Positions 17,562 to 56,644 of a DNA stretch of 64,000 nt are shown here, piece after piece (the stretch's first letter is position 1; each line of letters begins with the position of its first letter). A model generated the notes under the pieces. The model was not told where the DNA came from, did no database searches, and worked only from the letters and a program-made list of their open reading frames with translations. Source of the stretch: a virus; the IMG/VR virus record IMGVR_UViG_3300013744_000001, positions 1 to 64,000 of that record; one strand, written 5' to 3'. The position numbers and the translations under genes are program-made.

Positions 17562-17891
17562 ATGGACAGACACGAATACAATGCATTCGTCGAAGGTCTG
17601 ACGGCGCTTTTTCAAAAGCACGGATTGGACGCCGACTGCTCCGACTTGATTCTTCAGGCGGGCGTCGGCGTCACCGAGTCTTACATGCATGACCTTGGCA
17701 TCGCAGTCGATCTGCACAACGACAGAGTTTATGTGAGTGTTCTGGACGATGGTGTAGGCGAGGACTACGCCAGAGAGAAGGTACAGCTCTTCGCCCGCAT
17801 GCTTAAGCGTCGTATCGACTGGATGCAGAACAGGATGCGGAAAAACGAAGCTACGGATTCAGGGAGCTGTGATGAAGGAAATAATTTATGA
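17562..17891 (+). CDS. hypothetical protein
   Basis: 109-aa ORF whose 3' end overlaps the polymerase start. Confidence 0.4.
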   Translation: MDRHEYNAFVEGLTALFQKHGLDADCSDLILQAGVGVTESYMHDLGIAVDLHNDRVYVSVLDDGVGEDYAREKVQLFARMLKRRIDWMQNRMRKNEATDSGSCDEGNNL

Positions 17892-19920
17892 CCTCGAGGT
17901 CATGCCCAATATCTTTCTTGCCGGATTCTACGACCCTGCGAGAGACAAGTGTCTGTTCTTCGAAATGTCACCTTTCCACAACCATTATCACATGCTGATT
18001 CAGTACCTGGAGTATCTGAAGAAACAGGACGTGGTCATGGTGGGGTTTAACAATTACTCTTACGACTACCCTGTCCTTCATTCTCTCCTCCATCTGACCG
18101 AAGACAGACTGGCAGTGCCCAGAGCATGGAAGAAGAGTTGTGATATTATTGGCTCCATGAAAAAGGGTGACAGATTTGGGCATGTGATCTGGGACAGAGA
18201 CATGCACATTCCACAGCTCGATCTTTTCAAGCTGCACCATTTTGACAACAAGACCAAGACTGTATCACTGAAGCGTCTGGAGTTTAACATGCGGCGCAAA
18301 GACATTGTTGAATATACCGAAGGTTTTGACTACATGTTAACAAGTGAGGAAGAGATTCGACAACTCAAGGAGTACAACCGCTCTGATCTTCTGGCCACGG
18401 CCCAGTTCAGGCAGATGAGCGAAGAAGCTGTGTCGTTCAGGGAAACATTGATCCCGGAGTTTGGCATCGAGGTCCTGAATTACAACGACACCAAGATCGG
18501 GGAGAAACTGATTCAGAAGCGACTGGAAGAGCAGTTTGGTTTGGGAGCACTCTATGACTTCGAGGAAGATGAGTCGGGCGTTTGCCGCAGGAAACCCAAG
18601 CAAAGTTTCAAAGAGTACGTCGATCTGAAGGACATTGTCTTTGACAGGGTGTTTCAGTTCGAGGTTCCCGTGTTTCGAAAGGTGTTTCAGTTTATGAAGA
18701 CGCTTCGCATCTTCATTCTGGGTGCTCGTTATGAATGGTCGGACAAGCCTGACTACCTGAAGATGCAGAAACTCATCGAGCGATGCAAGGTGGAGTTGGA
18801 CAGGCTGGACAGAAAGTCGGAAGCATACAGGGAATTGAAAGAACAGATTGCAAAACTTAAGGAAATATATCAGGATTACAACATCTCCGTTGTCCATGAC
18901 GATGTAAGCTTCGAGTTTGGGAAGGGTGGTCTGCATGCCGCCAGACCGTGGAGCGCATTCAGAGCGACGGAGGAGTATAAAATCGTAGACGTTGACGTGG
19001 CATCCTTCTACCCTTCGATCGCTATCGAATACCGGATGCACCCCGAACATCTGCCGGTTGAGTTTACAGACATTTACGGAGCACTCAAGAAGGAACGCAT
19101 TCTGTACAAGAAGACTGATCCTGCCAGAGCCAAGATGTTGAAGCTGGCTTTGAACGGAACCTACGGCAAGACCAACAGCGTGTACTCTATGCTGTATGAT
19201 CCCGAGTATAGTTTACGTACTGTAATAAACGGGCAACTGATGCTTCTCATGTTGTGGGACATGCTGACGACCTCCCTTTCGACTGTTAAGTTGATACAGG
19301 CCAATACAGATGGCATCACATACTGGATTGCAAACGAAGAGATTCAGGCCGCGCAGGAGATATGTGTTAAATGGGAACGCATGACGCGGATGGAGCTTGA
19401 GTTTGCAGAGTATCAGAGTATGTTTGTCAGGGACGTAAACAACTATGTAGCCCTTGGCCTTGATGGCAAGATCAAGGCCAAGGGCGCATACAACTGGAGC
19501 GAATTGTACAGGGACAATGCGTCTGGGATAGCCTGGCACAAGAACCACAGTGCGGTTATCATTCCCATGGCTGCGACGGAAGCGCTTGTGCACGGCGAGG
19601 ATGTGGGAAACTTCATTCGGTCACATGACAATGTATATGACTTCTTCGCCTGCACGAACGTCAACCGGTCATCGCGTCTGCTCTGGGGCAACGACGAGGT
19701 TCAGAGGAACACAAGGTATCTGGTCAGCAAGGAAGGAAAAAACTTTACAAAAATAATGCCTCCGACCAAATCCAAACCTGACCTCGAACGTGCCATCAGA
19801 GTGAACGCGGGCCAGAACGTTACGCCGTGGAACACTGTGGAAAGCGGCAACGCCTCGGACTATGACATTGACTATGATTGGTACATAGCCGAGGCGTTGA
19901 AGCTGATAGAGGGTTTTTAA
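17872..19920 (+). CDS. family B DNA polymerase with 3'-5' exonuclease motifs
   Basis: Exo I YDLEV, Exo II FNNYSYDYPVL, Exo III YNRSDLL. Polymerase motif A DVASFYPSI, motif B KLALNGTYGKTN, motif C ANTDGITY. Confidence 0.7.
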   Translation: MKEIIYDLEVMPNIFLAGFYDPARDKCLFFEMSPFHNHYHMLIQYLEYLKKQDVVMVGFNNYSYDYPVLHSLLHLTEDRLAVPRAWKKSCDIIGSMKKGDRFGHVIWDRDMHIPQLDLFKLHHFDNKTKTVSLKRLEFNMRRKDIVEYTEGFDYMLTSEEEIRQLKEYNRSDLLATAQFRQMSEEAVSFRETLIPEFGIEVLNYNDTKIGEKLIQKRLEEQFGLGALYDFEEDESGVCRRKPKQSFKEYVDLKDIVFDRVFQFEVPVFRKVFQFMKTLRIFILGARYEWSDKPDYLKMQKLIERCKVELDRLDRKSEAYRELKEQIAKLKEIYQDYNISVVHDDVSFEFGKGGLHAARPWSAFRATEEYKIVDVDVASFYPSIAIEYRMHPEHLPVEFTDIYGALKKERILYKKTDPARAKMLKLALNGTYGKTNSVYSMLYDPEYSLRTVINGQLMLLMLWDMLTTSLSTVKLIQANTDGITYWIANEEIQAAQEICVKWERMTRMELEFAEYQSMFVRDVNNYVALGLDGKIKAKGAYNWSELYRDNASGIAWHKNHSAVIIPMAATEALVHGEDVGNFIRSHDNVYDFFACTNVNRSSRLLWGNDEVQRNTRYLVSKEGKNFTKIMPPTKSKPDLERAIRVNAGQNVTPWNTVESGNASDYDIDYDWYIAEALKLIEGF

Positions 19921-29157: not shown

Positions 29158-29439
29158 TTGGAGACGAACATGAACGAAGACAGACTGAAATTCTATCTGG
29201 AGAGAAGAAAGCAATTTAGCGACTGGTGCCTGCGCGTTGTCTTTGACGACGAGTGGCACAACTCTATGGTCGTAACAGAATGGTCGAAGAAACCTGATGA
29301 AAAAACAATCGACGATATTGTTCAACTTGTGAACAGATCCTTTGAGATACTGTCTAGATATCTGGGAAGAGCTGTAGTAAGAGAAATGGATACCCTCCGT
29401 CAGGGTATGTTACAGAGCGGAATTATCGGAGACAAGTGA
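29158..29439 (+). CDS. hypothetical protein
   Basis: RBS tttGGAGAcgaac. 93-aa ORF. Confidence 0.45.
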   Translation: METNMNEDRLKFYLERRKQFSDWCLRVVFDDEWHNSMVVTEWSKKPDEKTIDDIVQLVNRSFEILSRYLGRAVVREMDTLRQGMLQSGIIGDK

Positions 29440-29864
29440 TGACTCTTACAAAAGACGATGTGATGAATTTTAACTTCGGCGAACGTACGGATACGACTGT
29501 CGGCTTCGCCACTCCCGAGGACTGGATATTCGACGGCCTGAAGGCCTACGCTCAAATGGTGCTCATGGTTGTGCCCCAGTCGTTCAGAGACAAAAGCACC
29601 GAAGAGCTCGAAGCGATGACGCTTGCGGGCCTCAGGAACGCACACGACAAAATCCTGCGCATCGAGCGCGGAGCCCACACGCATCAGCCCATTGAATCAG
29701 TTACCACTATGCAGGCATGGGTGGAGGAAGCGATAATGGATTTTCTCTACAGTGATGTCTTTGTGCTCAAGGGCGAAGGCGCTGCCAGGTGGTCTCAGTT
29801 CTCGGTTGAGATTGCCAAGGCTCCTGCCTTGGCCAGACTGATTGATTTTCTGGAAACGAAATAA
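29436..29864 (+). CDS. hypothetical protein
   Basis: ATGA overlap with the upstream gene. 142-aa ORF. Confidence 0.45.
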   Translation: MMTLTKDDVMNFNFGERTDTTVGFATPEDWIFDGLKAYAQMVLMVVPQSFRDKSTEELEAMTLAGLRNAHDKILRIERGAHTHQPIESVTTMQAWVEEAIMDFLYSDVFVLKGEGAARWSQFSVEIAKAPALARLIDFLETK

Positions 29865-29871
29865 CCGAACT

Positions 29872-29904
29872 ACGATGGGGGTAACGAAACGTTACCCCCA
29901 TCGT
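29872..29904 (+). terminator. rho-independent terminator
   Basis: 15-bp perfect stem acgatgggggtaacg / cgttacccccatcgt with an aaa loop, followed by ttgtattcgttttcg. Confidence 0.7.
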
Positions 29905-29949: not shown

Positions 29950-30696
29950 ATGAATGAAGTAACTGTATTCAGATTCGAAGGCACTCGCGAAATTCGTACC
30001 GTTCTCAAAGACGGAGAGCCTTGGTTCGTCGCCAAGGATATTTGTGATATTCTGGAGTTGACAAATCCAACGGTAGCGATCGAATCTTTGGACGACGATG
30101 AACGGTCTAAGTATTTCTTAGGTCGTCAGGGAGAAGTAAATATCATTAACGAGTCCGGACTTTACGCACTGGTGTTCAAATCCCGAAAGCCTGAGGCCAA
30201 GGCGTTTCGCAAGTGGGTTACGTCGGAAGTGCTCCCGGCAATTCGAAAGACTGGACAGTATACAGTAACTGCAACGAATATGATTTCGGAGGAATTCACA
30301 TCCAGAGCTTTCGCAGCTCTGAGGAGTATTGCTGTTACTGCCGGGCTGGAAGGTAACGCTGCTACTGTGTCTGCGGATAATGCGATGAAGCGTATCCATA
30401 ACATTTCTCCACTGAACCTTTTACAGATCGAATTAAAGACTCCCGACCAACAGAGACTTCTGACTCCAACCCAGATTGCCGAGCGACTGAAGCTTTCCGG
30501 TCCCAGAGAAGCGAATCTGATTCTTGCTGCTAAAGGGTTCCAGATCAGAGAAGGTAAACAGTGGTTGCCAACAGACACAGGCAAACCATTTGCAGTACTT
30601 CTGGACACAGATAAACAACACAGCTCGGGCGTCATGATTCAGCAGCTCAAGTGGAAAGAAAGTATTCTGAGTGAGCTCGAAAATCTGGGCAACTGA
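29950..30696 (+). CDS. Bro-N domain antirepressor-like protein
   Basis: N-terminal MNEVTVFRFEGTREIRTVLKDGEPWFVAKDICDIL is the Bro-N signature. C-terminal half is KilAC/ORF6C-like. Paralogs occur at 36693, 62135 and 63356. Confidence 0.75.
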   Translation: MNEVTVFRFEGTREIRTVLKDGEPWFVAKDICDILELTNPTVAIESLDDDERSKYFLGRQGEVNIINESGLYALVFKSRKPEAKAFRKWVTSEVLPAIRKTGQYTVTATNMISEEFTSRAFAALRSIAVTAGLEGNAATVSADNAMKRIHNISPLNLLQIELKTPDQQRLLTPTQIAERLKLSGPREANLILAAKGFQIREGKQWLPTDTGKPFAVLLDTDKQHSSGVMIQQLKWKESILSELENLGN

Positions 30697-35207: not shown

Positions 35208-35702
35208 TTAGACGGGTAAGCGGACAAAGCCTTCTTTGTCCAGAGGTAATTTCGCAAGTCTTGAAACACTGAGACCAAAGGTCTTTTGCACATGACAGTA
35301 CTCCCTGAATGTCTTCCAGTCTCCGGCCCACTCCCAACCGGCCTCCTTGAACTGGCCCACAATCTCCATCCAGTCTGCCTTGCCGTCATGGTCAAAGTCC
35401 TGCATCGTATCCCACGAAGCATACTTGCCACCGTCAATAATGAGGCAGAAGTCCATGGCCAGACCATAGTTGTGCACAGACTGACCACCCTGTGCATTGG
35501 TGACAATTTTGCCCGGTCGGGCTCGGCCCATGCTGTACAGTACGTTCTGTTCGGCAACGCTCCTGAACCCACAGGTCACCCGCATTTTGGCTCTGCCGGT
35601 CAGCATCTCGTTGTTGATTTTCTCGAATAACAGAATCGCTTCATCCCGAAGTTTGGGATGAAGCGATGCAATTCGTCGTTCGCTTAAAGGATCACTGTGC
35701 AT
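35208..35702 (-). CDS. endolysin, peptidase M15 family (L-Ala-D-Glu peptidase / D,D-carboxypeptidase fold)
   Basis: Zn-ligand motifs GQSVHNYGLAMDF (HxxxxxxD) and WEWAGDW...HV. The start may instead be the GTG at 35711. Confidence 0.65.
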   Translation of the reverse strand: MHSDPLSERRIASLHPKLRDEAILLFEKINNEMLTGRAKMRVTCGFRSVAEQNVLYSMGRARPGKIVTNAQGGQSVHNYGLAMDFCLIIDGGKYASWDTMQDFDHDGKADWMEIVGQFKEAGWEWAGDWKTFREYCHVQKTFGLSVSRLAKLPLDKEGFVRLPV

Positions 35703-36078
35703 CGTTCTCACTCTGCATGGTAATTTCGAGAGCTTTGGAAGCGTCGTTCATTTCCATCAGCACATCACGAAGCCGCTTGGCAGCAGCTTTGAGGATACCG
35801 CGGAAGGTGTCGTCGTGAACCGTGTCCGCATACTTATCAATCCATTCCACAAACTTCAGTTCCTGTTCCTTGAACATGCCCTCGAAGAGAACAAGACCGG
35901 CAGTGTACTCCCAGATCTTGTCATCCAAAGTACCCGGAATCTTGTTCGTTACTTTGGTACCACCTTCGTAAATCTTCTGCTTGAGTGCATAGATATTCTT
36001 GGGTGTGATGTGAGAAAGCGCCCAATCGACGAGGGCAGGAAGAACCAGCTGGATAATTCGTTTCTGTAGGATGTTCAT
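35692..36078 (-). CDS. hypothetical protein with one hydrophobic segment (lysis-cassette associated)
   Basis: ATG at 36078 follows AAGGGGGaatgac. Hydrophobic stretch IIQLVLPALVDWAL. Confidence 0.4.
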   Translation of the reverse strand: MNILQKRIIQLVLPALVDWALSHITPKNIYALKQKIYEGGTKVTNKIPGTLDDKIWEYTAGLVLFEGMFKEQELKFVEWIDKYADTVHDDTFRGILKAAAKRLRDVLMEMNDASKALEITMQSENDAQ

Positions 36079-36412: not shown

Positions 36413-36696
36413 CGAAGATTCCCCCTCTTTTCGAGCTTGTTAAAATTTTCTGCTATGTTCTTGAGGTCTCGTGCCATCTCGTTCAATTTGTTTTCCAGAG
36501 TCTTGTACTGATACTGTGATACTGCATTGTCAGTTTTGAGGTTGCTCAGTGTATGCTCTGTCTCATCCACCCTTCGTTTAATTTCATCTATCTGCATCGT
36601 CACCGACCTCAGGGAAACTTTTATCGTTGCATACGCTGTGCCGCAGGAGAAGATGACACAGAGTATCGCCCACATGCCGTTCAGCTCGTCAATCAT
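36394..36696 (-). CDS. membrane protein: N-terminal TM helix plus coiled coil (holin- or i-spanin-like)
   Basis: MWAILCVIFSCGTAYATI is a TM segment followed by a charged coiled-coil region. It lies within the lysis cluster. RBS cAAAGAGGcaaagcct. Confidence 0.4.
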   Translation of the reverse strand: MIDELNGMWAILCVIFSCGTAYATIKVSLRSVTMQIDEIKRRVDETEHTLSNLKTDNAVSQYQYKTLENKLNEMARDLKNIAENFNKLEKRGNLRWQENA

Positions 36697-37457
36697 AGGC
36701 TTTGCCTCTTTGGTTTGAGCTTGTCACAAATCTTCTCCTTCCACTTCATCTGCTGGATCATGACACCGTCCGAATGTCGTTTGCCTGTGTCCAGAAGAAC
36801 CACATAATCCCGACCCTTGTCCGTAGGTACCCATGTACCGTTTATATTACTCTGAAATCCTTCATGTGCAAGAAGTTTGTTTACTTCTCTTGGACCGAAG
36901 AAACCAAGACGCTGTGCAATCTGTGTAGGAGTGAGGAAGAATTGCTGGTCAGGGTTCTTCAGTTCAATCTGCAAAAGCTTCAGGGGAGACACTTTATAAA
37001 TGCGCATCATCGCATTGTCAGCCGACACTGTGGCCGCATTACCTTCGAGTCCGGCAGTAATAGCTATGCTCCTCAGAGCTGCAAACGTTCTGGATGTAAA
37101 CTCTTCCGAAGTCATATTCGCTGTTGCCACTTTATACTGCCCAGTCTTGCGAATGGTCGGAAGTACTTCCTCGAAGATCCAAGCCTCAAACGCTTGGGCG
37201 GCCGGCAACTGGGAGCTTACGATTAATCTGTACAGATCAGGCTCTGTCAGGAAACGTATGTCCTGCACACCACCTGCTGTTTGAAGGGGGTAGCATTTTG
37301 CTACCCCCTTGCAATGTTGCTTGATGGCATCAGACGCATTGACATAGCCCAGAATTTCACAGACATCCTTGCCGCAGAAGAGAGGGTTTCCGTCGATATC
37401 AACGATAGTGCGAACCTGACCCTGACCATTGAAACTGAATACTGTCATTTCATTCAT
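36693..37457 (-). CDS. Bro-N domain antirepressor-like protein (GNPLFCGKDVCEILGY subfamily)
   Basis: MNEMTVFSFNGQGQVRTIVDIDGNPLFCGKDVCEILGY is Bro-N. The C-terminal half parallels the 29950 product. Confidence 0.7.
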   Translation of the reverse strand: MNEMTVFSFNGQGQVRTIVDIDGNPLFCGKDVCEILGYVNASDAIKQHCKGVAKCYPLQTAGGVQDIRFLTEPDLYRLIVSSQLPAAQAFEAWIFEEVLPTIRKTGQYKVATANMTSEEFTSRTFAALRSIAITAGLEGNAATVSADNAMMRIYKVSPLKLLQIELKNPDQQFFLTPTQIAQRLGFFGPREVNKLLAHEGFQSNINGTWVPTDKGRDYVVLLDTGKRHSDGVMIQQMKWKEKICDKLKPKRQSL

Positions 37458-37477
37458 GATAATTTCCTTTTAAGATT

Positions 37478-37643
37478 CATCTAAAATAAAATTTCCCAAC
37501 ATCGGTATTACCGATGTTGGTGCTGACCAATTACATGGGCCGTCCGCCCCGACGCATTTCAGGAAACGTCGTATATCTGTCAAAGTTAGACTCGTCTAAA
37601 ATAGGATTCCCAACATCGGTAATACCGATGTTGGGATTAATAC
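37478..37643. repeat. two copies of a ~45-bp element containing the perfect palindrome ccaacatcggta(tt/at)accgatgttgg
   Basis: Copy 1 at 37478..37526, copy 2 at 37589..37643. Both share tc(a/g)tctaaaata...ttcccaacatcggtaNNaccgatgttgg. Confidence 0.8.
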
Positions 37644-37803
37644 TTGATTTTTCGTCATTATCGAGAGTGCTTAACGCATCACTCAAGTTAACAATTTCCA
37701 GAATATCGCAGATGTCCTTGGCTACGAACCAGGGTTCTCCGTCTCTGACCACAGTGCGAATCTCGTGCTGGTTCTGAAAACTGAATACTGTTACTTCATT
37801 CAT
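37531..37803 (-). pseudogene. truncated Bro-N paralog
   Basis: The first 55 aa (MNEVTVFSFQNQHEIRTVVRDGEPWFVAKDICDILEIVNLSDALSTLDNDEKS) match the other Bro-N proteins. After that the frame runs into the palindromic repeat element and loses homology. Confidence 0.5.
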
Positions 37804-37853
37804 GTTTTGCTCCTTTGGGCAAAGATTGAAAAAATGCGCCTCTCGGCACTTCA

Positions 37854-37880
37854 GATGGGGTGGTATTTTGCCACCCCATC
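37854..37880 (-). terminator. terminator of the giant gene
   Basis: gatggggtgg - loop - ccaccccatc hairpin, followed on the minus strand by a ttttttc run and then the RBS of the next gene. Confidence 0.6.
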
Positions 37881-37915: not shown

Positions 37916-40900
37916 CTATTCGACGCTGATTCGCAACGACTGTCGCATAAGTTTGATTGCCCGATCCGTGTTGGCAATGGCGATGTCAATGGAATCCTTG
38001 TCCATGCGACTGGTGGGTACAGATTTGAGCAGATTGCGTTTCTTCTCCTCTAAAGAATTCAGCAACATAATGTCGAAGATGTTCTGCCCCTTGAGGAAAG
38101 CCATGGCGTTATCTTTGCTCACAAGCGTTGCCGCGTTCTTGCGACTGGTGGTCAGGTACTTATGAATCTCCTTCTCACTCAGACCGAAATCACGAATACC
38201 TTTGAGGAGGTAAACAGCCTTGTTCAGATCTTCGCGATTCTTCTCCCGAAGTTTTGCAATCCGCTCTGCAATATCCCGTGCCGGCAAAGGTTGACCCTTG
38301 GACAGATCATCGACAAAAGCCCGCTTCTTGACGTTTTTGCTCAAGCTCCCCTGCTCTCTGATAAAGTAACCCAGATGATTGGTCACATCTCTGACGTCAT
38401 ACTTGTTGACTGTAATGCCAGCGAGCTGGGGAACCTTTATCGCCCGACCCTTGCGAAAGTCAGTGTCTGTAGACGGAAGCCCCACAGTCGCCTGAAGTAT
38501 CTGGGTCATTACACCAGGCACCATCATACGTTTGCCAATAGCCGTGGCAGCCTCAGCAGGAGAAATCTCCCTGCCGAACTTGTCCTTGCCCATCAGATTA
38601 TTGACCAACTCCTGTGTCATTGTACCCTGAGACAGATCCATGAAGTTCTTCATGGCCTCGATGATGCGCTGCTCAAATGTCGGATCCTCGGTCGCAGCCA
38701 TAATGGGCGCATGGGTCAGCATGACGTTGTTACGGGCATAGTTGTAACCAAAGAACGAATACGGATCGTCGTGGTCACGCATGACAGGAAGGAACAGATT
38801 ATTTCCTCCGTTCAACCAGTTCGTTATCCTCGTCGCACCGTGATACTCCGACGGATAGAAGAAGGAACGAGCACGTCGTTTTTTCCGTTCATCATCGTCG
38901 TCATCCAGCTTAATAGCACCGAGCATGGTACCTAGTGCATAGGGCAGATAGGCGATGACACCCTTGGCTGCACCGAAGAGACCGTAGTACGTAGCCGTTG
39001 TCAAACCAACACCGATGCCTCTCTGTACAGCCTCCTTCGTCAAAGCGTCTTTGTACTCCTTCATTGCAGGTTCGTTTACATCGTCTCTGGCAGAGACCTT
39101 GCCCAGCTCCTCCATGACGTCGAAGAAGCGGGTATAGATCGCAGCGGTGATTCTGGCCATCTGGAAGTTATGCATCAGGAAGTCCGGCGTAATCATGCGG
39201 ATGGAATTCATCGACATGTGCCTGATGAGCTTGGGCGTATATTCCCATGACGTCGTTTCCTGTAGCGTCATCTCCGCAGCATCCTTGCCCGCCAGTCGTT
39301 CGTACTGCTCTTCTCTCAAACCAGGCGTGAGTGCCTTATGCTTGGCTAGCATGTTGTTGTAGTTGTTCATGAAGACCCAAGGCTTCAGCCACTCGTCACC
39401 GAATGCGTAGAACTGACGCATCTTGTCCAGAGCATTCTTGACGATGTTCTCCAAACCATTCTGACTCATGTTGGAAACGACATTCAGGTCACGCAAGTAG
39501 GAAAAAATTGCGTGTATCGCCTTCTCGTGCCAGCCCTTGTTCCTGATCTGCATCATAGTGTCGGATGTCGTAGCGCCCCAGATATGGTACTTGTACATCA
39601 TTTGCAGGAACTTGTTCTCAGCTTCGCTCAGGTTTTTGCTGTTTAGAAGCATTTTGTCTGCAAACTGTTTCCACGATACATGACCGGCTTTCTTCATCAT
39701 GCCGATGCGGAAGAGATGGCCTGACGACATGAGAATACCCAGACTGCCGATGTGGTTGCTGACTGCCAGGCGCAGACTGTAAATGGTACTGTTGGCCTTC
39801 ATCGAGTCGATGGCACCGGACCAGGCAGCTTCGCGCACATTCCTGTTGACTTCGTACTCGTTGTCAAGCGCGTGCTGGAAAATGGGATCGACGGCCACAT
39901 ACTTCAAAATGGAACCGTCTTCGGCCCACGAAAGGCTGTCGCTGTAACTGCGGTCATGCTCGATAGATTGTCGCAGTACGCCCATGCCAGTGTCCAGAAT
40001 ATGTTCCGCCATCTCCTGGTTGAACGTTAGCTTTTGTAAAATCTTCTCCTGCTGATCAACAGAGTAGAGCAGTGACTCGAAGAAGTTGGTGTTGGGATCG
40101 AGGAAGGTACGATAGAAGTTATCTTCCTCAGTATCTTCGAGTGTTCTGCCCCGAACAGCGGAGATGCGGTTCAGATGATCCTCGCCGTAACCGTTGTTAT
40201 TGTTACTCCTCGACGCTTCCATGATGAGCTGTTTGATTTCGGCACGCATGTTTCGAAGCAGCATCGTACGCCAGTCACTGCCGGCACGAATTTTGACTGC
40301 ATTTGAGGTGCGCAGCTCGAAGTAATGCTTCAGAGCATCCAGCCGTTCTTTGTCTTTCAGCACCGTCCTTGCGTCCCTGGTACTGCTGAGGAACTGCTTG
40401 TAGGTAATCAGACCCGCCTGTTCCTGCTGTGTCGCCGCTTCGATGATACGTTCCGCATCTCTGGCCCGCTCGTTCACTGTCATCTCGCCAGCACCGGTGT
40501 CCGTCTCCAGATAGGAGAGCAAACGCTGCAAATCACGTACACCTGTCTCACCGTTGAAAACATTGTACATGCGATGATCCCAGTCGGCGTGGAACCGGGA
40601 CTCGAATTGCGCCATGCTCTTACGCATCCTGCCAATTGTTCGCTCATCGATCTTGGCAATGCGCATGCGCTTCTCCAGCTCCAGAGCCTGACCACGAATC
40701 GCACGCCTGATGTCCAGTGCATTGCGATACTTCATGGACGAAAGCTCAAGTGCTGTCGCATCGGCGAGTCTGGCCTTCTGCATCATAGCAGAATCGGGAG
40801 CAAAGCCTAGCCGGGTAAAAACCTGAGCAAAGGTCTCATTACCTCTGCCGCCAATGAGATTGGGATCGAAGTGTGCATCAAGCAGAGCAGACTTCAGATC

Positions 40901-43900
40901 CAGAAGATCGAGGAAACGTTTCCTCTGCTTGCTGGCCACAGTCTCCGAAACTTTGTTCCAGAAATTGCCGATCAGTCTGGAAGCATAGGCTGTGCCTACC
41001 GACTCGCCAAGCACCGCATGCTCAACGTTCAGGCTGGGGAAGAAACCCCAACCTTTCAGTCGATTGTGCATGGGGAAGTTGTTGAGAATGAATTCAGCTA
41101 TAACATCGCCCTTCGAAAAAAACCTCCCCCACTTGCGAATAACCTCTCTGGTCTCGGCAACCTGCAAGGCTTCTCTAGTCTGCGGCACAGTCCTTCTGGT
41201 CTGACCGTAGTCGTTGGTTATGATCTGAATCTTCGAAAGCGGTGCTCTGGCACCCGTGGGTGACTGAAGTGTATTCTGAATCAGCCTTGCGCCTCGGCCA
41301 ACGACCGTACCCATTGTCAGAGCAATCAGATCTTTGGCAAACTTGTCTATCGCAGTGCGATCACCTATATTGACAAGCAGGCTGTTACCGATCTTTCGCT
41401 CGATCTCTGCCATTACGCCCCAGAGTCTCTCGCGCATCGCTCTATACTCTTCGTCGCTGATGTGAAAAGCATTGGCGATCTGCGGACTGTCGTCCATAAG
41501 CGACGCATTGACATGAGCGAAGAATTCGTTGACCAGATACACCTTCCACTTGTCCGGTACAAGGTATGGGTCAGATATACCCAGCATCTCAAAGTATTGC
41601 GGCAACTCGGCATAGATGGTTTCCGTATAGGCGTTGTAAATCCGCACAATTTCTGCATCCAGCGCCTTGCTGCCCCACATGGTCCAGCCGTAGTGAGAGC
41701 ACTCGTGCATGACAGTTGCCAGCACCTGCGGAATGCTTCTGTCCCAGGCTCTGATGTGGATGGATTTGTCAGTTGCTCTGTAGGGGAAGAACAGACCGAA
41801 AGCGTTTCGCAGTATGGCTTTAGCCGTCCGGGTCTCTTCCCAATGAATCTCGATCTGCTCATACAGTTCGGGTGGGAGAATCCTTTGAAGGAATGCCTCC
41901 AGTTCCTCGGGCGTTGTAAGTCCCGGAATCTTTCGCACAGTACCGTCTTCATTTGTGCTGAAGAGCGTACCATCGTCGTAGTTCGTCGTCAGCTCGCTCA
42001 GACTGTCCAGAGCAGCTCTGAAATTCTCGTCCTTGCCATTGACATCTTCGAACACATACTCAGTATTGCCGCTTTCGGTACGCACAGATGCTGTACCATC
42101 TGCATTGTACTCAGGAACAACACTGTCATTCTCCTCGATGCCGGCCTGAATCGCTTCGTCCAAAATTTCATTCCGGGTAAGCTCGGATGCCGGAGGAGGA
42201 ACAGGATGAGCAACATCGATCTCGCTGACATTGTTCTCCAGAGCACCGATGGCATTGGCAGCGCTCAACAGCTCAGCATCGGTGAGGGAGAGTGACGAAG
42301 GAGCTACGTGCAGAGCAAGCCCTGCGGCATCGTAAAGAGCATCGCGCACTTCGTTGAAGTGCGGATTCTCTTCACCTTCGAAAATAACTTCCCGCATCAT
42401 GGAGGCGAAGATACCTTTGCGATCAAAGGACTCTCCGTTCTGAGATTCTCTGACCAACATGCCGACAGTCGAGTCCAGAAGATCCTTGTCCGCTTCCAGG
42501 CTGGTCTGAAGTGCCCGCAGCAGATCGGTATCTCTGGCGTTGTCCGTCATCAGCACAGCACCATAGACCAGACTCTCCCGCTCATGGCCGGGCACAGTTT
42601 CGTCATACCGCATCGCAAAGCCACCGCCCTTGCGATTGTAGACACCAGGTGCACCCTGTATCTGCTGCCCTTCGACAGTCTCGTCAGACGAACGTCCGGT
42701 ATCCTGAATAGAAAAGAGTGGGAAGCCTTTGCTCTGAATACTGTTCCTTATCTCGTCGGTCAGCATCAGAGCCTGTCTAACGCCGATGTCCTGAATATCG
42801 ACGTTCTCCAATTTCGCGTCAGGCGAATGATCGGAAAGAATATTCTGCATGGCTTTGGGTAGAGTCTTCTGATACACCTCCAGTCTGCGCTTGCCCATGG
42901 TGTGCCAACGGTTGCTCTGATCTTCGGCACTGGTCCACGAAATACCGTCGATGTCACCCTGCTCCACAGCATGTGCGATAACCTGCTTTGCAACCATGGT
43001 AACCCATGCCTTCTGATATTTGACATAAGGCGCTTCGGGTCGCAGCTTACCAAAGAGCAAGTCGTTAGCCCAGTCACTCTGCACCTCTTCGACAAAGAGA
43101 ATGCGTTTGCCGTCGGTCGTCTCTCTAGTATCGAATCGGGTATGTGCAACGAGATCTTTGCCCTCTCTGGGAAAATGTCCCTGGTTAAACTCATCAGCTA
43201 CGAGCTGCTCGTTCATGTCTTGCTCGACGACAAAATCAGAAGCACGTTTTAACGCCTCTTCGAGTGTGTCAGTAGTATATGTAACAGTTGTACCATCGGA
43301 AACGTTGGATATGTCATAAAAATCATCGTCACTAAAAACTTCTATGGTAAGCGCATACTTGTTGTCCTTCTCCACATAATCTATATGCATATCTCGTCCC
43401 AGCATAGCATCTTCGGACAAAGTATAACGCAGCCCCCCATTAACAACCTCTTTGCGCCAATGACGAGGATCAATCACAAACTCGTGCAAATACTCAAGTG
43501 TCGGCGTTTTCTTGTTCTGATAGAACAGAAGCTCCGCATAATCGGTTTTTCTTCCTTCCATTACGGAACCGGAGTAATGCGTAGGTAGATAAGAGCTCGT
43601 ATCAGATGTAAGATATGCCAGTTCAGGATTGTTGTATATGTTTTGATTAAACCAATCGTTGAAATATGTTATAGCATCCTTGTAATTTTTGAACTGCTTT
43701 GCCCATTGCTTCCGAGCATTTCCGACAGCCTGCTGATTTGCCACAGGTTTGAACGTAGCATCAAGTATATTTTCGAGGCGAGTCTGCACATCATTGTTAT
43801 TCAGCAACGTCGTAATATCATCGTTATTTATGGCAAGTATAACACGTCTGATCCCAGTGCCTGCAGAATGAACACTCAATCTGCTCAACAAAGCATATGC

Positions 43901-46900
43901 AATCGGCTGATCAGCGAACAAATCACTGCTGACAGCAGCAAAAACATAATCTGACGACTCATGTTTTCTGATCCGAAGATCCCAGTCAGTGTTGTCAAGC
44001 GGCACACTTTGTCTGGCGTATCTGCCAAGCTTGCTGCGCGGACCGCCAAGCATTACATTTTTGAATTCAACATTGTTGCCGACCAGAAAATCATAGAGCT
44101 CTGCTGGCTCCACTATGTCGTTCGGGTCTTTGATTTCCAGCCACTCACGAACACCTGTCCAATACACCTCCTGATTGAACGGTGAACTCTCGCCTCTGTT
44201 CTTGCTTTCATTGCCCCACTGTACCAGTCTGGACAACCATTTGGCAGCAGGAAGATTGCGAGATTGTTCTCCTACCAACTCGGCCAGAGACGAATACCAA
44301 GGTACAGGTGATACCTGTTCACCGATATCATCTTCCGTAATTTCGCGTTCAACAAAATCTGCACGTGCCTTCAACTGCTGAATGTACAAATCAATATCAG
44401 CCTGAGGCGTGTTGTTCTCGGCCAAAATATAAACGTGCTTGTGTTGTCTGGAAAGACCGGAACTGTACTGCTGCCCGATGTACGATACGTTGAAACCAAA
44501 CAAACCTGGGTTGTTCATTTCGTTCAGATCAATCTCTTCGTCATATGCAAGCGCAGTTACAAACGGTACTCCGTTTTCCGTCATCTCGTGCATAAACACA
44601 TACTCTGACATGTGTTCTCTGTCGACAGAGAGATAGTCGATAACAAACGTATCGTTGATAAATCGACCAAGCGCAAAATCAGCAGAAGTGGTGCCCGGCA
44701 ACATCGCCTGTTGTCTGCGCATGATTATGTTCTGCAGCGCATCTATGCTTGACACTCTGTCGTTGAGCGAAGCATATATAAACCCGTAGCGCCTAAGTCT
44801 GTCAAACCGAGTATTGAAGTTCGATATAGTTTCAGGGCTATAAAACACTACACCCTTGTCTCGCAGCTTCTTCGGTATTGCACTTTCCTTGGGTACAATG
44901 TGCTTAGCATTCGGTCCAAGATGAACAATACCGCTGTCCATCTCCTCGTACTGAACAGGCTTGTTCGATATGGCCATCGAGAACTTCGGCGTCGCCTCGT
45001 CAAAAACCTTGAACTCTCCCTTGCTGTTCTTCACCACAAGATTACCGTCCTCGGCCTGCTGTACCGCAGGAGGAGAAAGAGACGAATCCGTCTGCCAATC
45101 TCCATACCACGCCTTGAAGGAAGGTGTTTGAACGAAGTCCACCATGAGATCGCTTCGAGAACGAAGTTCCTGATGAGCACTGAACAACTGAACAAAGCCC
45201 CGAAGCTCTTTTTCGAGGATGTGCTGGTCCTCCCGTGCAATATCTTCGGTCTGATACGCGGCAGATTCTCTACGCTCAGTTGCAGTCATATCGAGGCGGG
45301 TCTCTACATTGCGAGCCTCCGTCTCTCCGGCAATGGACTTGTACCATTTGATCGCAGCCAATTCCTGTTCATACTCTTCCTTCCACGAACGAACGACACC
45401 CCATTGAGCGTCGAACTTCGTCTTGTCCATGCCTCTGAACGCGGGTACATTCCGCCTGACATAGTCGTAGAAATGATCCCAGCCTACATTGTACAACTTT
45501 CTATAAATATCTCGCTCATATCGCTTTTCATTATAGTACGGAGTTTTTACAGCGAAGAGACGATTGATCAGTTTAACAAGTCGATTGATACTTGAGGCTT
45601 TGTACTTGTCAATCCGTACCTTTCGGGACAAATCTCCATTGGCTTTGACAGAAATCCCATGTGTTTTGAGATAGCCTGTCAGAAGAGATTTGTCCGTCAT
45701 CAGTTTCAACCATGGGCCAGGAGCATTCTCTCTGGCTTTCTCCCTGTTTACATTTACAGGTGCTTCCTCAACACTGCCCCCATTTGCAAAGCCTTCAATG
45801 TCCTGCACAGCATGCTGAATCTCATGCATCAATACCTGCTTTGCTTTCTCGGGCTTCTTCAGTAAATCATCGCGCAAATGAATACCGCGTTTTGGGCCAA
45901 AATATGTGCCTGCAACTCTGCTGTCGTCGTCAGCGCGATATGCAAAACGCATCTGCTGAAGCTCTGGGTACGCTGCGAACAATTCAGGTGCGTCGATTAT
46001 TTTGCGCAAAGCCACAGGTACAACTTGCGCAAGTGCATGTATTGCTTCGTTTGTACGAACTGTAATACCAGAGTCGTCAAGCTCATAGCGCCACTTCCCG
46101 TCTTTGCCTCGCTCCCAACCTGTCGCCAGCTTGATGAGACTCACGCTCTTGTTGGCAGCTTCCATCTCTCTTGCTACAACCAGATTGTCAAGCCGCGTCG
46201 TTGCCGCTTCAGCGTTGTCCAAAGCAGCAGCACCACGTTCTCCGGCAAAGGAGAACTGTACATCTGATTCTTCAGAGGCTGTACGCTCATGAATTTTGTC
46301 CAACTCTTTACGCAACTCATCGATTGGCACACCCAGATTACGAGCCAAACCGTAAATCTGAGCATTCCTCGATATTGTCTGACTGACATTGCGATCAAAG
46401 TCGCCGCGCCTGGCTGTACGCACAGCACCTCTGGCGAAGTTGACAATGTCCTGGTTAGTCAAACTGTCCGTATCGATGACACTCAGCTTGTACAAGTACG
46501 TCTTTATCCAGCTTACAATGCGACTAACGATACTCGTCGGGTTGCCGGCATTGGCCTCGACCAAATACGCTCCAACCTCTTCCCAGAAATGACGATCGTT
46601 CGAATTAAGTCTGTTGCCTTCCTGCACCCGCCTGATGGCTTCCCGAATCTGACGACCTTCTTCACTGTCATCATTCTGCCTATTCTTCAACTCATCCAGA
46701 ATGCCTGTGAACTCCTCATCGCTGAAGCCAAAACGTCTGACATGCGCGCCAAGCTCGTGCATAAGCACAGCACCGGCGTCGCCTACCCTGATACCGTCAC
46801 CCACAAGAACAACCTGCCCAGTTTCCGGAATAACAAAGCCCTGAATCAAACCTTCTCTGGAGTAGAACGGAGCTGTACCGTAGGCGGCAGCAATCAGTTC

Positions 46901-49900
46901 CTCGGCCTCTTCCTGTGTATCCACAAGTATCAGCGTCTCCGAACCCAGAAGATTGGCCAGACGACTGTCGCTCATCAGCCGTGTACGTAGCAACTCTCTC
47001 AGAAGCGAGATACCTTTGGTACCTGCGCGACGAACTCTAGCAGCTCTGGTGTTTCGTGAAAACAGAGGCCCTGCCAGCACACTCACACGTGCGTTCATGG
47101 CAACAAGTGCGTCGACATCTTTTACGTCTGGAAGCGGCTTGGTCACTGGAAAACTGCGATTGAACAGATCCTCGACCTTGCGCACCAGGTTCTGCATATC
47201 TTCCAGTGTCGAATTTCTGTCGTTCATGACCTCAGCAACTTCCTGACCCAGCTCACTGTTACTATCGAGGCGAGAACCAAGGACACCAGCGTAGATGCGC
47301 ACGGCGTTGCGATAGAAATTGCGCTCCATCCTGTCGGCGATCTCTTCCAGCGCAGCAGCTTTCTCCTCGGGCGTTGACAGTTGATTCGCTGCTTCGACCT
47401 TTTTAGCCACACCAGAGAGTGCACTCATAGCACCCTTGCTGAGCCTCATCTGCTCCCGAATGGCTGCTTCCAAATTTTGAATACGCTCGGTCTGCGTTTT
47501 TACAGCAAGTTCCGGTTGACCGGAAGTCACAGCATCTTCTGTACTGACAGACGTTGTCGCCTGGTCGTTGCTATGACCCATCGGATGCAGAAGCGACTCA
47601 TTAACAGAAGAGAAGAAGCCTTTTTTCGACGGCGTCCATGTCCAGCCCTGCGGCTCACCGAGCGGACTGAGGAGATGAACATACTCTTTGACCTTGGCCA
47701 GAATATCGGCAAAGGGCGTATCCTCGCCGAACATCACAAGACTGTTGTCATTGTTGAACTGACTGAGAATGGCGTGAACGCTGACCAACTCGCCTGTCGC
47801 AGCTTCGGAGTTACGGCCTATATCCTCAAGCTTTGTATCATTGCTGAAAAGCTTTGCCTTGCTGATATCCTTTGTCCAGTAAATACCCGTATTACCAGAC
47901 TTGGCAGAAACATACTCCGTTTCCCCGTCAGTGTTTACACGAGCAACAACGCGAGCGTCGATCCAGTTGGTACCAAAGACACTGCGCAAATCATCGAGAC
48001 TGGTTGCGTTGAACAAACGTTCGAGTCTTGCAGGGAACGAATCTTCTTCCGCAGACCATTCAATGACGCGGTGCAGAGGTCGCTTGTCGCCGGTTGTCTT
48101 GCCACTCGTACGCCAGACAGCGTAAATCTTTCGTTTCGCACTATCCTTCTGATTGCGAGGATAGACGAAAATGATTTCATCAGATACACCGGATTCAACA
48201 GGGAGAGAAATAGTCTCATATCCCTGGCGGCTCTTGCCCTGTAAAACACCGACGACATACTCGATACCTTGTCTGGCGTCGATCTCGTCGGTCATCTCAT
48301 CCATGAATCTGGTGAGATTACCCTTGGTCAGAAGACGACCACGCTGGTTGCGAAGAATCACCTTGCCGCTATCGGTGACATAGAGACTTAGTAATGCGCC
48401 ATTGTCTGTCACAAGAGAACGATAGTTGACATCGTTTCGACCCTCGTCATCAATGATTCTACTGAGACGAAGTCTGCGAATATCGTCATCGTTAAACTGC
48501 CACCAGGCTTTAGAGCCCTTCATCTGTCGCTGTACACGAATGCCTTCGGCAGGTGGACCAATGTAGATGCTCTTCGCAACCACCGTGCCCTGTCCTTCCT
48601 GATTGTTGGCATCGGGCTTGGCGTAAGCTGTGCGGATTTCCTGTCTCGCAACACGGTCATCCAGCTTTATCTGTGCACCTGTCTCCACATCATAGCCGTC
48701 AACCGTGGCATAGAGAGCACTGCTGTTGTTACTCTCGTGAAGCCTTGCATGATAAAGAATACCGTCTTTATAGGCATAGATGTCCCGACTTCCGATACCT
48801 CTGGACTTTCTTGTTTTGGCAGAAACCTGCTCAGGCGAGATGACAAAGTAACCCTGTTCTCTGAGCGTCTGCTCGATGTTTCTGGTGTCCTGAAGTTCTT
48901 CTCGCTTTGTGACGTTGCCGTCGTCATCCGTCTCTTCGACCTCCACCAACTCAAGGAAAGAAGCTCTGGTGCCTGATGCTCCCTGTCTGGGCACATCGGT
49001 CACGACGGGAATGGATACTGCCCCCGCAGGCGCAGTGTCTGTTACAAGCTCGGGAGGCGCAGTACCCTTGTATGTGTACAGCTCACGTTCCAGATAAGAC
49101 AGCAGACCCTCATCACTCTGATCCTCGATCTTGCTGGCATCGATGGTCGTGCTCTTGTGAAACACAACCGCATTGTCGTTTGCATTATGCAGAGCAACGA
49201 TTCTCTCGATCAGTCTGCCCGAACGATCACCGCGCACCGTAAGCGTCTGACCGGACGAGAATTTGACAGAAGCTTCGTCATTCTCGTTACGATGCTCTAT
49301 CTGCTTTGCGTCGATTGTCTTCTTGGTTTGAGGATCGTTGATTGTAGCCAGAAGGCGTAAATATGCCTCGCGATCCGAAGAACCTTCGGCAATGTACTTG
49401 CCGATAGACACAACACTGTCCTCCTGACCGGTAGCAGCATTTGTCAAACTGTCCCACTCGTACATGCCGTCCTTGCGTTTGGCATGAGGAAGTGTTGTCA
49501 CCTCTTTGTCAGACACACCTGCGATAACATCCGTACCATCATCAGTGGGACTGAGATCGTCCCGATTGACACCTTTGATGTCTGTACGCTTGGGAAAACC
49601 GGCAGCAGGTCCAACGTCCAGCGGTCCTTCGTCGTCTCCTCTGATGATGCGATCGTTGAACTCTTTTTCTTCAGCACGCGATGTCAGTTTGTCCCCTGCC
49701 TCGGAAACTGTATGAATGCCTGCACCGGACGCTGCACCGACGAGGAAGGTATCGATACTCCTGTCAACAACGTCCATCGCACCATAGGTCGCACCCTTCA
49801 GGGCAGCAGAACCCATGGCAACATGTTCCTGCGCCGTTTCGGTTACACCTTCAAAGAGAGCGGCTCTGCCGGTGCGTTGCAGAATATTCCGATCTGCTTC

Positions 49901-56022: not shown

Positions 56023-56322
56023 TCATTGAACAATTTGTTTCGTCTCAGAAGCAAACAATTGTTTCGCCTCCAAATGCGTTGCCATATAATTTATAAGCTC
56101 GGTCTTTCGTTCCACATACTCAACACCTTGACCAATGAGAACACCGTTAAGCGTTTCCAACTCTCCCAAAATATCGAGCTGCTTAACTGTCAACTTTTCT
56201 CTATCGAGTCCTGTGTACTTACCTGTCAGCGTCCAATTTATAAGCTTGGCCTCGTTCATATAATGCCTGGCATCTGTCGACTTTCCTCGCTTATCGCGAG
56301 TCAATTTTAACAACTTGCACAT
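56023..56322 (-). pseudogene. C-terminal half of a split KilA-N family paralog
   Basis: ARHYMNEAKLINW...GLDREKLTVKQLDILGELE aligns to the C-terminal region of the 61391..62116 product (ARMINQIMFG...GLDKETLDILAKIEE). Confidence 0.4.
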
Positions 56323-56365
56323 TGTCTTAAACGAACAGGTCGCAACACTTCGTAAACGTTTCCAT

Positions 56366-56644
56366 TCAAATTGAGGATGATCGCCGCGAAGAACTTTGTA
56401 AAATCGTCAATGATTTCGCATACTTCCAAATGGGGGGATTTTCCCCCATTTGGAAGTTATTGTTTTCATTATACATTTTACAAAGCTCATTTATATATGT
56501 TTTCGTCGACGGAAGTTTGAACCACTCTTTCAAATCCCTGCCAAAATTTTTCGCAGCTTCTGTAGCATTGAACCAACCATCCTCCATAAAGAAAACATCC
56601 ATATCCTCATACTGACTAACCACCAGCTCATTCTTCTTTCCCAT
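56366..56644 (-). pseudogene. N-terminal KilA-N domain fragment of the same split paralog
   Basis: EDGWFNATEAAKNFGRDLKEWFK parallels DEGWFNATEVGVHFGKRVDHWLA. The frame degenerates into SSSRRSSSI after the embedded palindrome. Confidence 0.45.

Follow-up and report, generated by a model that had tools for sequence, protein, structure and literature searches.

A palindrome inside the coding sequence of Bro-N genes, in a phage genome and across the Bro-N family

The Bro-N genes of the window and their palindromes

The stretch of DNA analysed here, referred to below as the window, comprises positions 1 to 64,000 of the IMG/VR record IMGVR_UViG_3300013744_000001. It is a phage genome with a GC content of 49.7%, and it carries genes for a DNA polymerase, a primase, a helicase, a terminase, a portal protein and an endolysin, together with ThyX, a C5 methylase and a PD-(D/E)XK nuclease. 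It also carries several genes with a Bro-N domain, and inside the coding sequence (CDS) of these genes, at codons ~50–59, lies a dyad-symmetric DNA element of ~27 nt that is family-wide in Bro-N genes. The locus around 36693–51064 is transcribed from the minus strand, where the order from 5' to 3' is an open reading frame (ORF) of 4382 amino acids (aa), a hairpin at 37880–37854, a small hairpin with a T-run at 37849–37836, a truncated Bro-N gene (37803..37531), a spacer and a full-length Bro-N gene (37457..36693). Six ORFs of the window match the Bro-N family of Pfam (PF02498), with 40–95 bits against a gathering cut-off of 25.6. These genes and the palindromes that they contain are as follows, the z values being those of folding energy against synonymous-codon shuffles.

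29950..30696, plus strand: Bro-N paralog of the shorter 'ERSxxxLGRQG' subfamily (Pfam)
36693..37457, minus strand: full-length Bro-N gene, 254 aa (Pfam PF02498, E=2.4e-23)
37284..37310, minus strand: palindrome in the CDS, 12-bp arms and 3-nt centre, AAGGGGGTAGCA-AAA-TGCTACCCCCTT, encoding KGVAKCYPL
37531..37803, minus strand: truncated Bro-N copy, the Pfam match covering profile positions 1–46 of 96
37608..37636, minus strand: palindrome of the truncated copy, 13-bp arms, in the homologous codons, TCCCAACATCGGT-ATT-ACCGATGTTGGGA
62135..62893, minus strand: Bro-N paralog, 252 aa (Pfam E=3.1e-25)
62716..62744, minus strand: palindrome in the CDS, 12-bp arms, CAAGGGTGTCAG-CCTGA-CTGACACCCTTG, encoding HKGVSLTDTLG, z=-4.0
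62921..63214, minus strand: short Bro-N paralog, 97 aa, with an out-of-frame internal deletion (Pfam E=1.7e-16)
63043..63065, minus strand: palindrome in the CDS, 9-bp arms, TGGGGTAGC-AAAAC-GCTACCCCA, encoding GVAKRYP, z=-3.8
63356..64000, minus strand: Bro-N/KilAC paralog whose 5' end lies beyond the window (63356..>64000; Pfam)
63920..63946, minus strand: palindrome in the CDS, 11-bp arms, AAGGGTACGTA-CAGTA-TACGTACCCTT, encoding KGTYSIRTL

Five of the six paralogs thus have a perfect palindrome of 9–13 bp at the same codons, in a site that is bounded in the paralog alignment by '...DA..L.DDEK' and 'LGG.Q..ISESGLY'. Among these five there are four different arm sequences, and the peptides encoded across the site differ as well (KGVAKCYPL, KGVSLTDTL, KGTYSIRTL and PNIGITDVG). 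The palindrome at 37284–37310 has a minimum free energy (MFE) of -24.6, compared with -14.3 in synonymous shuffles (z=-3.2). The sixth paralog, 29950..30696, is from a subfamily shorter by four codons and has at the site only a weak two-tier hairpin (30091–30127, with an inner 5-bp stem at 30107–30121; z=-1.9).

The original prediction, made from the letters of the window, had listed several of these palindromes, and all of them are present where it placed them. The GVAKCYP hairpin proved perfect, as had been claimed, although its arms extend over 12 bp at 37284–37310 rather than over 10. The palindrome in the GVAKRYP paralog was confirmed too, but the true start of the ORF that had been given as 62921..63265 is an ATG at 63214. 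Over their final ~35 nt (62901–62940 and 63331–63370), this short gene and the next Bro gene are identical at 33 of 35 positions but are read in different frames, so that the short gene derives from a full-length Bro gene by an out-of-frame internal deletion.

A 21-nt pattern taken from two copies in CDSs and one intergenic copy, GGGGTRGCAAAAYRCYACCCC, has four sites in the window with at most three mismatches, where 0.01 would be expected, and the fourth of them, at 29872–29904, is new. More generally, the window holds 17 perfect hairpins with a stem of at least 10 bp and a loop of 3–9 nt, against ~0.4 expected by the analysis' own arithmetic; long perfect palindromes seem unusually frequent in this phage.

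The same site in Bro-N genes of other genomes

Bro-N genes were gathered without regard to the hairpin from 80 IMG/VR loci and 80 loci of GTDB species genomes, the latter found with patterns of peptides that lie in the domain's C-terminal half. The hosts in the GTDB set include Clostridia, Proteobacteria, Bacteroidota, Cyanobacteria, Actinomadura, Streptococcus, Lactobacillales, Planctomycetota and Spirochaetes, among others. Nearly all genes of this set form a hairpin at the homologous codons, with stems that differ from one another, for instance GGGTGTCACT-gtt-AGTGACACCC, GGGTATCATT-tca-AATGATACCC, GGGTCTGCG-tactg-TGCAGACCC and CACCACCCTCA-tcagt-AGTGAGGGTGG. In the main subfamily the frame reads AAG GGK ... 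ACC CTT, with arms of 9–13 bp and a centre of 3–7 nt. Divergent subfamilies, which have other residues or 10–25 extra codons in the loop, keep strong local palindromes there. They include contigs labelled as giant-virus metagenome-assembled genomes (GVMAG), such as the locus L190 with 13 perfect bp. Cultured phages have the palindrome too, including the Ant gene of Listeria phage A006 (z=-6.4), gp39 of Gordonia phage Utz (12 bp), gp70 of mycobacteriophage Trixie and the Staphylococcus phages 69 and B_UFSM4.

The site is homologous in all family members, with arms that differ between paralogs. An exact scan of IMG/VR with the degenerate sequence GGGGTRRCRAAAYRYYACCCC returned 97 stretches, 40 of them inside Bro-N genes at the palindrome position, and the sequence CCAACATCGG... 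is confined in IMG/VR to the lineage of this phage. The inner GTCGGTATTACCGAC core of the palindrome at 37608–37636 is also found in the loci L240, L246, L268 and L270. Homologous Bro-N genes thus have palindromic codons at this site and the hairpin is conserved in other genomes.

A constraint on the nucleic acid

Folding was assessed in 127 non-redundant Bro-N genes, in 16 segments of 48 nt each, against synonymous-codon shuffles. Only the segment at nt 145–192 folds better than its shuffles, with a mean z of -1.69, values below -2 in 35% of the genes and a perfect stem of at least 8 bp in 23%. The mean z of the 15 other segments, the unconstrained inter-domain linker included, lies between -0.43 and +0.29.

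Codon usage at the stem points to the same place. In 92 canonical cores, with the rest of the same genes as background, Lys is encoded by AAG in 96% (background 56%), Thr by ACC in 97% (37%) and Leu by CTT in 97% (23%), while GGG and GGT together make up 96% of the stem Gly codons, as against 39% elsewhere. The two Gly codons directly 3' of the stem show ordinary usage. Across the whole domain the codon outliers are G52, T58 and L59, with K51 less so, their G statistics reaching 118–121 compared with at most 48 at other positions.

Covariation was found as well. In the 92 sequences 77% of the cells that should pair do so, against 67.3±0.8% in shuffles (0 of 500 as high), and the covariation score is 0.281, compared with 0.130 in shuffled alignments (0 of 500) and 0.095–0.116 when the partners are slid along the stem. 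The inner stem pairs occur in four to six pair types. Chance and codon usage are ruled out as causes by the synonymous shuffles, the site-wise codon statistics and the slid-partner controls.

Since the arms differ between paralogs and between lineages and yet stay complementary, the constraint acts on the nucleic acid and not on the protein. The encoded residues change in codon-complementary pairs, such as K with L, G with T or P, V with D or Y, R with P and N with I, behind which stand codon pairs such as AAG/CTT, GGT/ACC, GTC/GAC, CGG/CCG and AAT/ATT. In an AlphaFold2 (AF2) model (pLDDT 81), codons 51–58 form a single beta strand with a turn at residues 59–60, so that the centre of the palindrome, at codon 55, does not coincide with a protein turn and the symmetry of a protein beta-hairpin is rejected as the cause. 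With synonymous conservation and covariation both positive in homologs from other genomes, the suggestion that a nucleic-acid element co-evolves with Bro-N genes was borne out.

The symmetry reaches into the central codon, where positions 1 and 3 are symmetric in 53 of the 92 cores, while amino acid and codon usage would predict 30.1±3.9 (z=5.8). Ile at this position is encoded by ATT in 8 of 9 cases, Thr by ACT in 8 of 9 and Asn by AAT in 7 of 7. Such central symmetry is the mark of a true palindrome, as made by copying one arm from the other. On the question of which strand folds, the Gly codon opposite the A of ACC is almost always GGT or GGG, and GGC, which would give a wobble in the antisense strand, accounts for only 1–2% against a background of 40%. 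Furthermore, the pair 20/26 is G.T in 24 cases and A.C in two. The scarcity of GGC and the bias at this pair are weak hints in favour of the sense strand as the one that folds.

Proposed function and alternative explanations

The reading preferred here, at a probability of roughly 0.45, is that the element is a selected cis-acting hairpin, whose likeliest action would be on the bro transcript and would limit its expression, with an action at the DNA level possible too. Through intramolecular template switching in the course of replication, a process documented to create and repair hairpins (PMC8794818), one arm would be copied onto the other again and again, and purifying selection would then remove the variants that lose complementarity. 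The element would work in cis as a stem-loop whenever its strand is single-stranded, most probably in the sense transcript, at ~150 nt of the bro mRNA, where it could stand in the way of ribosomes or RNases and so limit or time the expression of its own bro gene. When a bro gene decays, its hairpin may survive and be reused between genes in terminator positions, as with the orphan copies at 29872, 37496, 37608 and 37854.

Several observations weigh against this reading. The central symmetry exceeds what a hairpin can use and fits a purely mutational origin equally well. G.T (65) and A.C (79) oppositions on the sense strand are balanced, while a structure at the RNA level would predict an excess of G.U, and the MFEs of the sense and antisense strands are equal. 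This lack of G.T/A.C bias, together with the symmetry that extends to the central codon, argues for a palindrome at the DNA level that is kept up by templating of one arm on the other. A G.A opposition stands at a synonymous stem site in about half of the canonical genes, and the hairpin is weak in Paenibacillus phage HB10c2, in gp89 of ICP1 and in the loci L204 and L256. The sense strand has no U-tract and the spacing to a slippery site is wrong, so that no textbook mechanism fits. Lastly, the homologs are not phylogenetically independent, for which reason the z-scores and shuffle counts given above overstate significance; the specificity for one site and the slid-partner control do not hinge on the independence of the sequences.

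The possible, if doubtful, alternative that comes next is that the palindrome perpetuates itself without being adaptive. Codon-complementary residues K-G...T-L would seed a quasi-palindrome, and template-switch errors would keep converting one arm to the other, in a drive akin to biased gene conversion that spreads inward and requires no function of the hairpin. The mechanism is documented (PMC8794818), and it would account for the symmetry of the central codon, which thermodynamic selection cannot explain, for the absence of a G.T/A.C strand bias, for the independence of pair number from genomic third-position GC content (GC3) and for the presence of the element in hosts as unlike as bacteria and giant-virus MAGs. 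Young, non-conserved long palindromes in unrelated genes of this phage, at 19450–19485 in the DNA polymerase gene and at 35635–35667 in the endolysin gene, speak for it as well. However, the prevalence of the palindrome is very high, and palindromes are known to be costly, as illustrated by SbcCD and Lamassu (PMC11707656). Selection is favoured over pure drive because three independent synonymous sites are 96–97% fixed across phyla, because a strong local palindrome is kept in the same loop despite changed outer residues or 10–25 inserted codons and is absent from an equally unconstrained linker (nt 313–408), and because a strong drive should have fixed GGT, yet GGG, with its G.A opposition, is found in 53%.

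A further reading, which also takes the palindrome as a selected and self-contained cis element, holds that the Bro-N domain recognises its own palindrome as a hairpin, a cruciform or a symmetric duplex; it is judged unlikely. If it were true, each bro gene would hold its own target within its CDS and paralogs would diversify into orthogonal protein–site pairs, the Bro/antirepressor family would gain a defined nucleic-acid ligand, and a nucleic-acid constraint would dictate a protein strand across bacterial and eukaryotic viruses. No solved Bro-N structure was found by sequence.

In a distinct and quite improbable version, a dimeric protein would bind the palindrome in duplex form; the gene's own Bro-N protein would be the most plausible candidate, and the palindrome would be an autoregulatory operator or another cis site. 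This would explain why the element is specific to one family and independent of the host, why it shows no strand bias and why paralogs of one genome have different palindromes. The outer boxes AAGGG/CCCTT are conserved in sequence, the third position of the Gly codon favours G over C or A irrespective of pairing, and related palindromes lie upstream of two other bro genes in the window. On the other hand, the inner arms vary freely while staying complementary, so that the specificity of the protein would have to co-evolve in each lineage, perfect arms of 12–16 bp exceed typical half-sites, and the search for additional copies of a gene's own arm within ±1.5 kb of 91 loci returned two where 1.25 would be expected.

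An intrinsic terminator directed against antisense transcription is likewise hard to favour. The opposite strand reads the hairpin and then CCC-UUUUCAUC, from the D-E-K-G codons, and could stop antisense transcripts, or form the end of an antisense RNA, within bro genes. Of the 8 positions of the consensus antisense tail, TTTTCATC, 5 are T, a direct result of the consensus codons GAT GAA AAG GG; the two codons that precede the stem on its 5' side show a mild excess of GAA and GAT (G ~10 each), and the scan rates both palindromes inside KilA-N genes of the window as terminator-like when read on the antisense strand, where their tails are TATTGTTTTC and TGTTGATTTT. Nevertheless, GGC, which would give a G.U wobble in the antisense transcript and is the commonest Gly codon of the background, is almost absent, the codon bias of the flank is no greater than at many other sites, and the T tail is absent from the GVAKCYP subfamily and from GVMAG-type members. 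Moreover, the scan does not call the Bro-N palindromes of the window on the antisense strand, and a scan for synonymous constraint gave no conserved antisense promoter signal in the domain.

A role as a recombination or cassette-exchange site, as the original prediction had proposed, at which Bro modules would be swapped or structure-specific nucleases would start recombination, is very improbable. Palindromes are known deletion hot spots, and three decayed copies in the window end or begin at a palindrome (37531..37803, the orphan at 37520 and the KilA-N fragment 56366..56644). Mapping of breakpoints among 230 Bro-N genes showed, however, that the ends of high-identity mosaic blocks avoid the palindrome: they cluster at the start and the end of the gene and near the domain boundary at ~+300, and 0 of 159 collapsed ends fall at +100..+275. 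Where the window differs from its 97% relative, the divergent block likewise begins near codon 105 of the Bro gene, away from the palindrome; no integrase, invertase or other recombinase family was found in the ~40 window ORFs scanned, the small ORFs being outside the scan; and a site that breaks itself would presumably be lost by conversion, according to the hot-spot paradox.

Other identities were considered and rejected. A sense-strand terminator is ruled out for the copies in CDSs, which have no U-tract. A stimulator of -1 frameshifting needs a slippery heptamer 5–9 nt upstream, but the one motif that resembles it (A AAG) belongs to the base of the stem itself, at a spacing of 0. Hairpin promoters of the N4 type for a virion RNA polymerase (vRNAP) do not apply, the giant ORF being by Pfam a polyvalent protein (LPD23) and not a vRNAP. 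An internal start after the hairpin, with the 'GGAGG' of L-G-G followed by Met, is contradicted by Gly codons that are mostly GGC and by a Met that is not conserved, and an antisense promoter within the domain by the lack of further synonymous constraint. A mobile palindromic repeat, similar to a Rickettsia palindromic element (RPE) or a miniature inverted-repeat transposable element (MITE), does not match a site that is homologous throughout the family with arms that differ between paralogs. An array of several iterons with an adjacent AT-rich region, as in an embedded origin of the lambda O type, is not seen, each gene having a single palindrome with no arm repeats within ±1.5 kb, and the palindrome is not part of a local set of operators. 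No compensation of stability with GC content was detected, and Rfam covariance models gave no match at the gathering score in the whole window.

Relation to known systems

Cis-acting structures within coding sequence include the operator hairpin of MS2, the frameshift hairpin of dnaX and the cre of picornaviruses. As in these, the Bro-N stem-loop lies in an ORF at one fixed site, where synonymous variation is suppressed and compensatory changes are seen. Unlike them, it is not associated with a slippery site or a start codon, only its outer AAGGG/CCCTT is conserved, it is common to a whole domain family in several bacterial phyla and in giant-virus MAGs, and it has the symmetry of a DNA palindrome.

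Rickettsia palindromic elements are 100–150-bp copies of one mobile sequence in many unrelated genes. The Bro-N palindrome resembles them in being translated in frame within a tolerant segment of the protein, but it occupies one homologous site in one family, is ~27 nt long, has a lineage-specific sequence and shows no insertion polymorphism. Origins of replication can lie inside the gene of the protein that binds them, as do the iterons of ori-lambda in O and the pT181 origin in repC. The Bro-N element is similarly dyad-symmetric, with an A-rich centre, inside the CDS of a phage DNA-binding protein, and diverges between relatives. It differs from ori-lambda in being a single palindrome with neither an iteron array nor an AT-rich region and with no extra sites nearby, and its binding by a protein is hypothetical.

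Like attC and shufflon sites, the element keeps its structure while its sequence varies, has conserved outer boxes and occurs in arrays of accessory genes. Unlike attC sites (57–141 bp) and the sites of invertases, it has no integrase, no extrahelical bases and no breakpoints, and its size is wrong. With regard to template-switch hairpins (Monttinen and Loytynoja 2022, PMC8794818), the perfect stems, the one-step 'compensatory' changes and a palindromy beyond the needs of folding appear to be shared; that work deals with hairpins in rRNA and non-coding sequence, while the Bro-N hairpin lies in a protein-coding beta strand and dictates its amino acids. Full-text searches of the literature returned no description of the Bro-N palindrome, which is mentioned neither in a survey of conserved viral mRNA structures, where KilA-N appears only as an illustration, nor in the paper on DdmABC and palindromes.

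Bro-N is among the commonest accessory domains of phages, prophages and large eukaryotic DNA viruses, with matches in 1,195 GenBank phage records, yet what it does biologically is poorly defined. That a nucleic-acid element should override the protein sequence at one fixed site across many bacterial phyla, and in contigs labelled as giant-virus MAGs, is unexpected. If it is functional, it offers a handle on the control of antirepressor-type genes. If it is non-adaptive, it would be a clean natural case of template switching that shapes a protein sequence over deep time and a caution for tests in which covariation is taken to prove function. For annotation, orphan hairpins near bro genes may be remnants of genes and not terminators that arose de novo.

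Free-standing copies and decayed Bro genes

Related palindromes are also found outside intact Bro-N genes. The intergenic hairpins next to Bro-N genes of the window are the following.

29872..29904, plus strand: perfect 15-bp hairpin with a T-rich tail, a relative of the palindrome in CDSs with three mismatches
37496..37520, minus strand: orphan second copy of the truncated gene's palindrome, together with ~22 nt that follow it on the 3' side; it lies in the spacer before the full-length gene and is terminator-like
37836..37849, minus strand: small hairpin GTGCC-GAGA-GGCGC followed by ATTTTTT, 5 nt beyond the hairpin at 37854–37880 and conserved in the relative
37854..37880, minus strand: hairpin with a 10-bp stem, GATGGGGTGG/CCACCCCATC, of the GGGGTRGC..GCYACCCC family

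In all listed palindromes the stem is GC-rich and at least 5 bp long, with a loop of 3–8 nt. A U-rich tract follows directly 3' only at 29872–29904, 37608–37636 and 37496–37520, and these orphans, with a GC stem and a T-rich tail between genes, resemble Rho-independent terminators; the palindromes in CDSs and the hairpin at 37854–37880 differ from such terminators in having no U-tract on the sense strand. The palindromes of the full-length-gene kind (37284–37310, 62716–62744, 63043–65 and 63920–46) are followed by CAAACAGC, GTGGAAAG and similar sequences and are not called by the terminator scan. The hairpins at 29872 and 37854 stand downstream of a stop codon, by 8 and 36 nt respectively, which the copies in CDSs do not.

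The hairpin at 29872–29904 follows the stop of the ORF 29436..29864, lies 46 nt upstream of the Bro-N gene 29950..30696 and is, judged by its stem and tail, a good predicted terminator of the former. The hairpin at 37854–37880 had been described as a free-standing terminator of the giant gene. It is indeed related in sequence to the Bro-N palindromes and in the position of a terminator, beginning after the stop of the 4382-aa ORF and ending 51 nt before the start of the truncated Bro-N gene, but it has no U-tract of its own and is replaced in the 97% relative (L126). There, the same spot holds AAAAAAGGGGTGTGGTAAAACACCACCCCCTTTTT, a canonical bidirectional A6-stem-T5 terminator, within a patch of dense differences. 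The small hairpin at 37836–37849 may be the actual intrinsic terminator after the giant gene.

In the truncated gene 37531..37803, alignments show that homology to Bro-N stops ~5 codons past its palindrome, at 37608–37636, which carries a T-rich tail 3' of it on the sense strand and which the scan calls terminator-like. The CCAACATCGGTAWTACCGATGTTGG element was correctly described as being present twice, with a similarity that starts exactly at the 5' edge of the palindrome and runs ~22 nt in the 3' direction. It had also been taken to mark where the truncated copy loses homology; homology does end nearby, but the palindrome is the form that the family element takes in the truncated copy, in homologous codons. 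The second copy, at 37496–37520, is a fragment of Bro-N that starts exactly at the palindrome edge, at 37520.

The free-standing copies look like remnants of decayed Bro genes. The truncated Bro-N gene, the deleted gene 62921..63214, a split KilA-N gene and the orphan at 37496–37520 suggest that in this phage palindromes outlive genes, or act as end-points of deletions. Palindromes that survive would then serve between genes.

Similar arrangements are seen in other contigs. In the unrelated contig IMGVR_UViG_2889618138_000017, a hairpin at 11885–11905 of the locus L128, GGGGTGGCAAAACACCACCCC, is nearly identical to that at 37854–37880 and stands 42 nt upstream of a Bro-N start, which is the same layout as in the window. 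Arrays of three to four GGGGT..ACCCC hairpins, with ~105-nt spacing and on alternating strands, lie 200–450 nt from a Bro-N gene in L087 (965–1196, 2816332307_000001) and L113 (81–375, 2595698351_000001).

A close relative and other palindromes of the window

No close relative of the window was found among GenBank phages. One IMG/VR contig, IMGVR_UViG_3300013750_000001, is 95–97% identical over the parts retrieved. In this 58.9-kb relative, which by coordinate offset would end near window position ~53.7 kb, KilA-N#1 has no detectable homolog and the Bro genes at 62–64 kb have no close one, so that either the accessory content of the two differs or the contig of the relative is incomplete. Differences between the window and the 97% relative L126 are clustered, with a dense block of 48 substitutions at 36861–37143, in the C-terminal half of the Bro gene, and a second dense patch at 37847–37887, which replaces the intergenic hairpin; the sequence at 37143–37714 is nearly identical in both. 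This uneven distribution is, on the face of the alignment, local mosaicism. The giant ORF 37916..51064 on the minus strand, of 4382 aa, has an LPD23 'large polyvalent protein' domain and several HExxH motifs recognised by eye.

Long palindromes also occur in KilA-N genes. The KilA-N gene 61391..62116 (minus strand; Pfam) holds a perfect palindrome at 61887–61922, and the ORF 56366..56644 (minus strand) another at 56422–56457. They have 15–16 bp, lie at the homologous position directly after '..ELCK..EN..' and have T-rich tails on the antisense (plus) strand, where they are terminator-like. KilA-N homologs that are palindromic in the same loop are found in a P22-like phage of Salmonella (10 bp), in Planktothrix phage PaV-LD (8 bp) and in Moraxella phage Mcat15 (6 bp), and about eight other KilA-N homologs have no palindrome in the loop. 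A query with the KilA-N#1 protein gave no match in IMG/VR, and a query with the KilA-N alignment found one relative. The region 56023..56644 on the minus strand is a split KilA-N gene, in which the ORF 56366..56644 matches KilA-N#1 over its N-terminal 60 aa, as far as the palindrome, and the ORF 56023..56322 is similar to the C-terminal part of KilA-N#1, with the middle of the domain missing. A third hairpin, of 13 bp, follows the split gene at 55981–56011 and is preceded by the same AATGAAAACA.

The palindrome at 19450–19485 in the DNA polymerase ORF 17869..19920 (plus strand) is perfect over 15 bp and in frame (ALGLDGKIKAKG). Two IMG/VR relatives of ~95% identity differ from it at two arm positions, one change giving a wobble and the other a mismatch (L to V), with no outgroup available; a DNA polymerase homolog of 38% identity has no hairpin there, which makes the palindrome lineage-specific. 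The palindrome at 35635–35667 in the endolysin ORF 35208..35711 (minus strand), perfect over 13 bp, lies in the N-terminal part of this M15-type endolysin (SLHPKLRDEA); its stem is the same in the 95% relative, with one difference in the loop, and it has a T-rich tail on the sense strand. Further hairpins lie inside ORFs that match no family, at 239–265 and 615–645 (187..1044) and at 1512–1535 (1160..1867).

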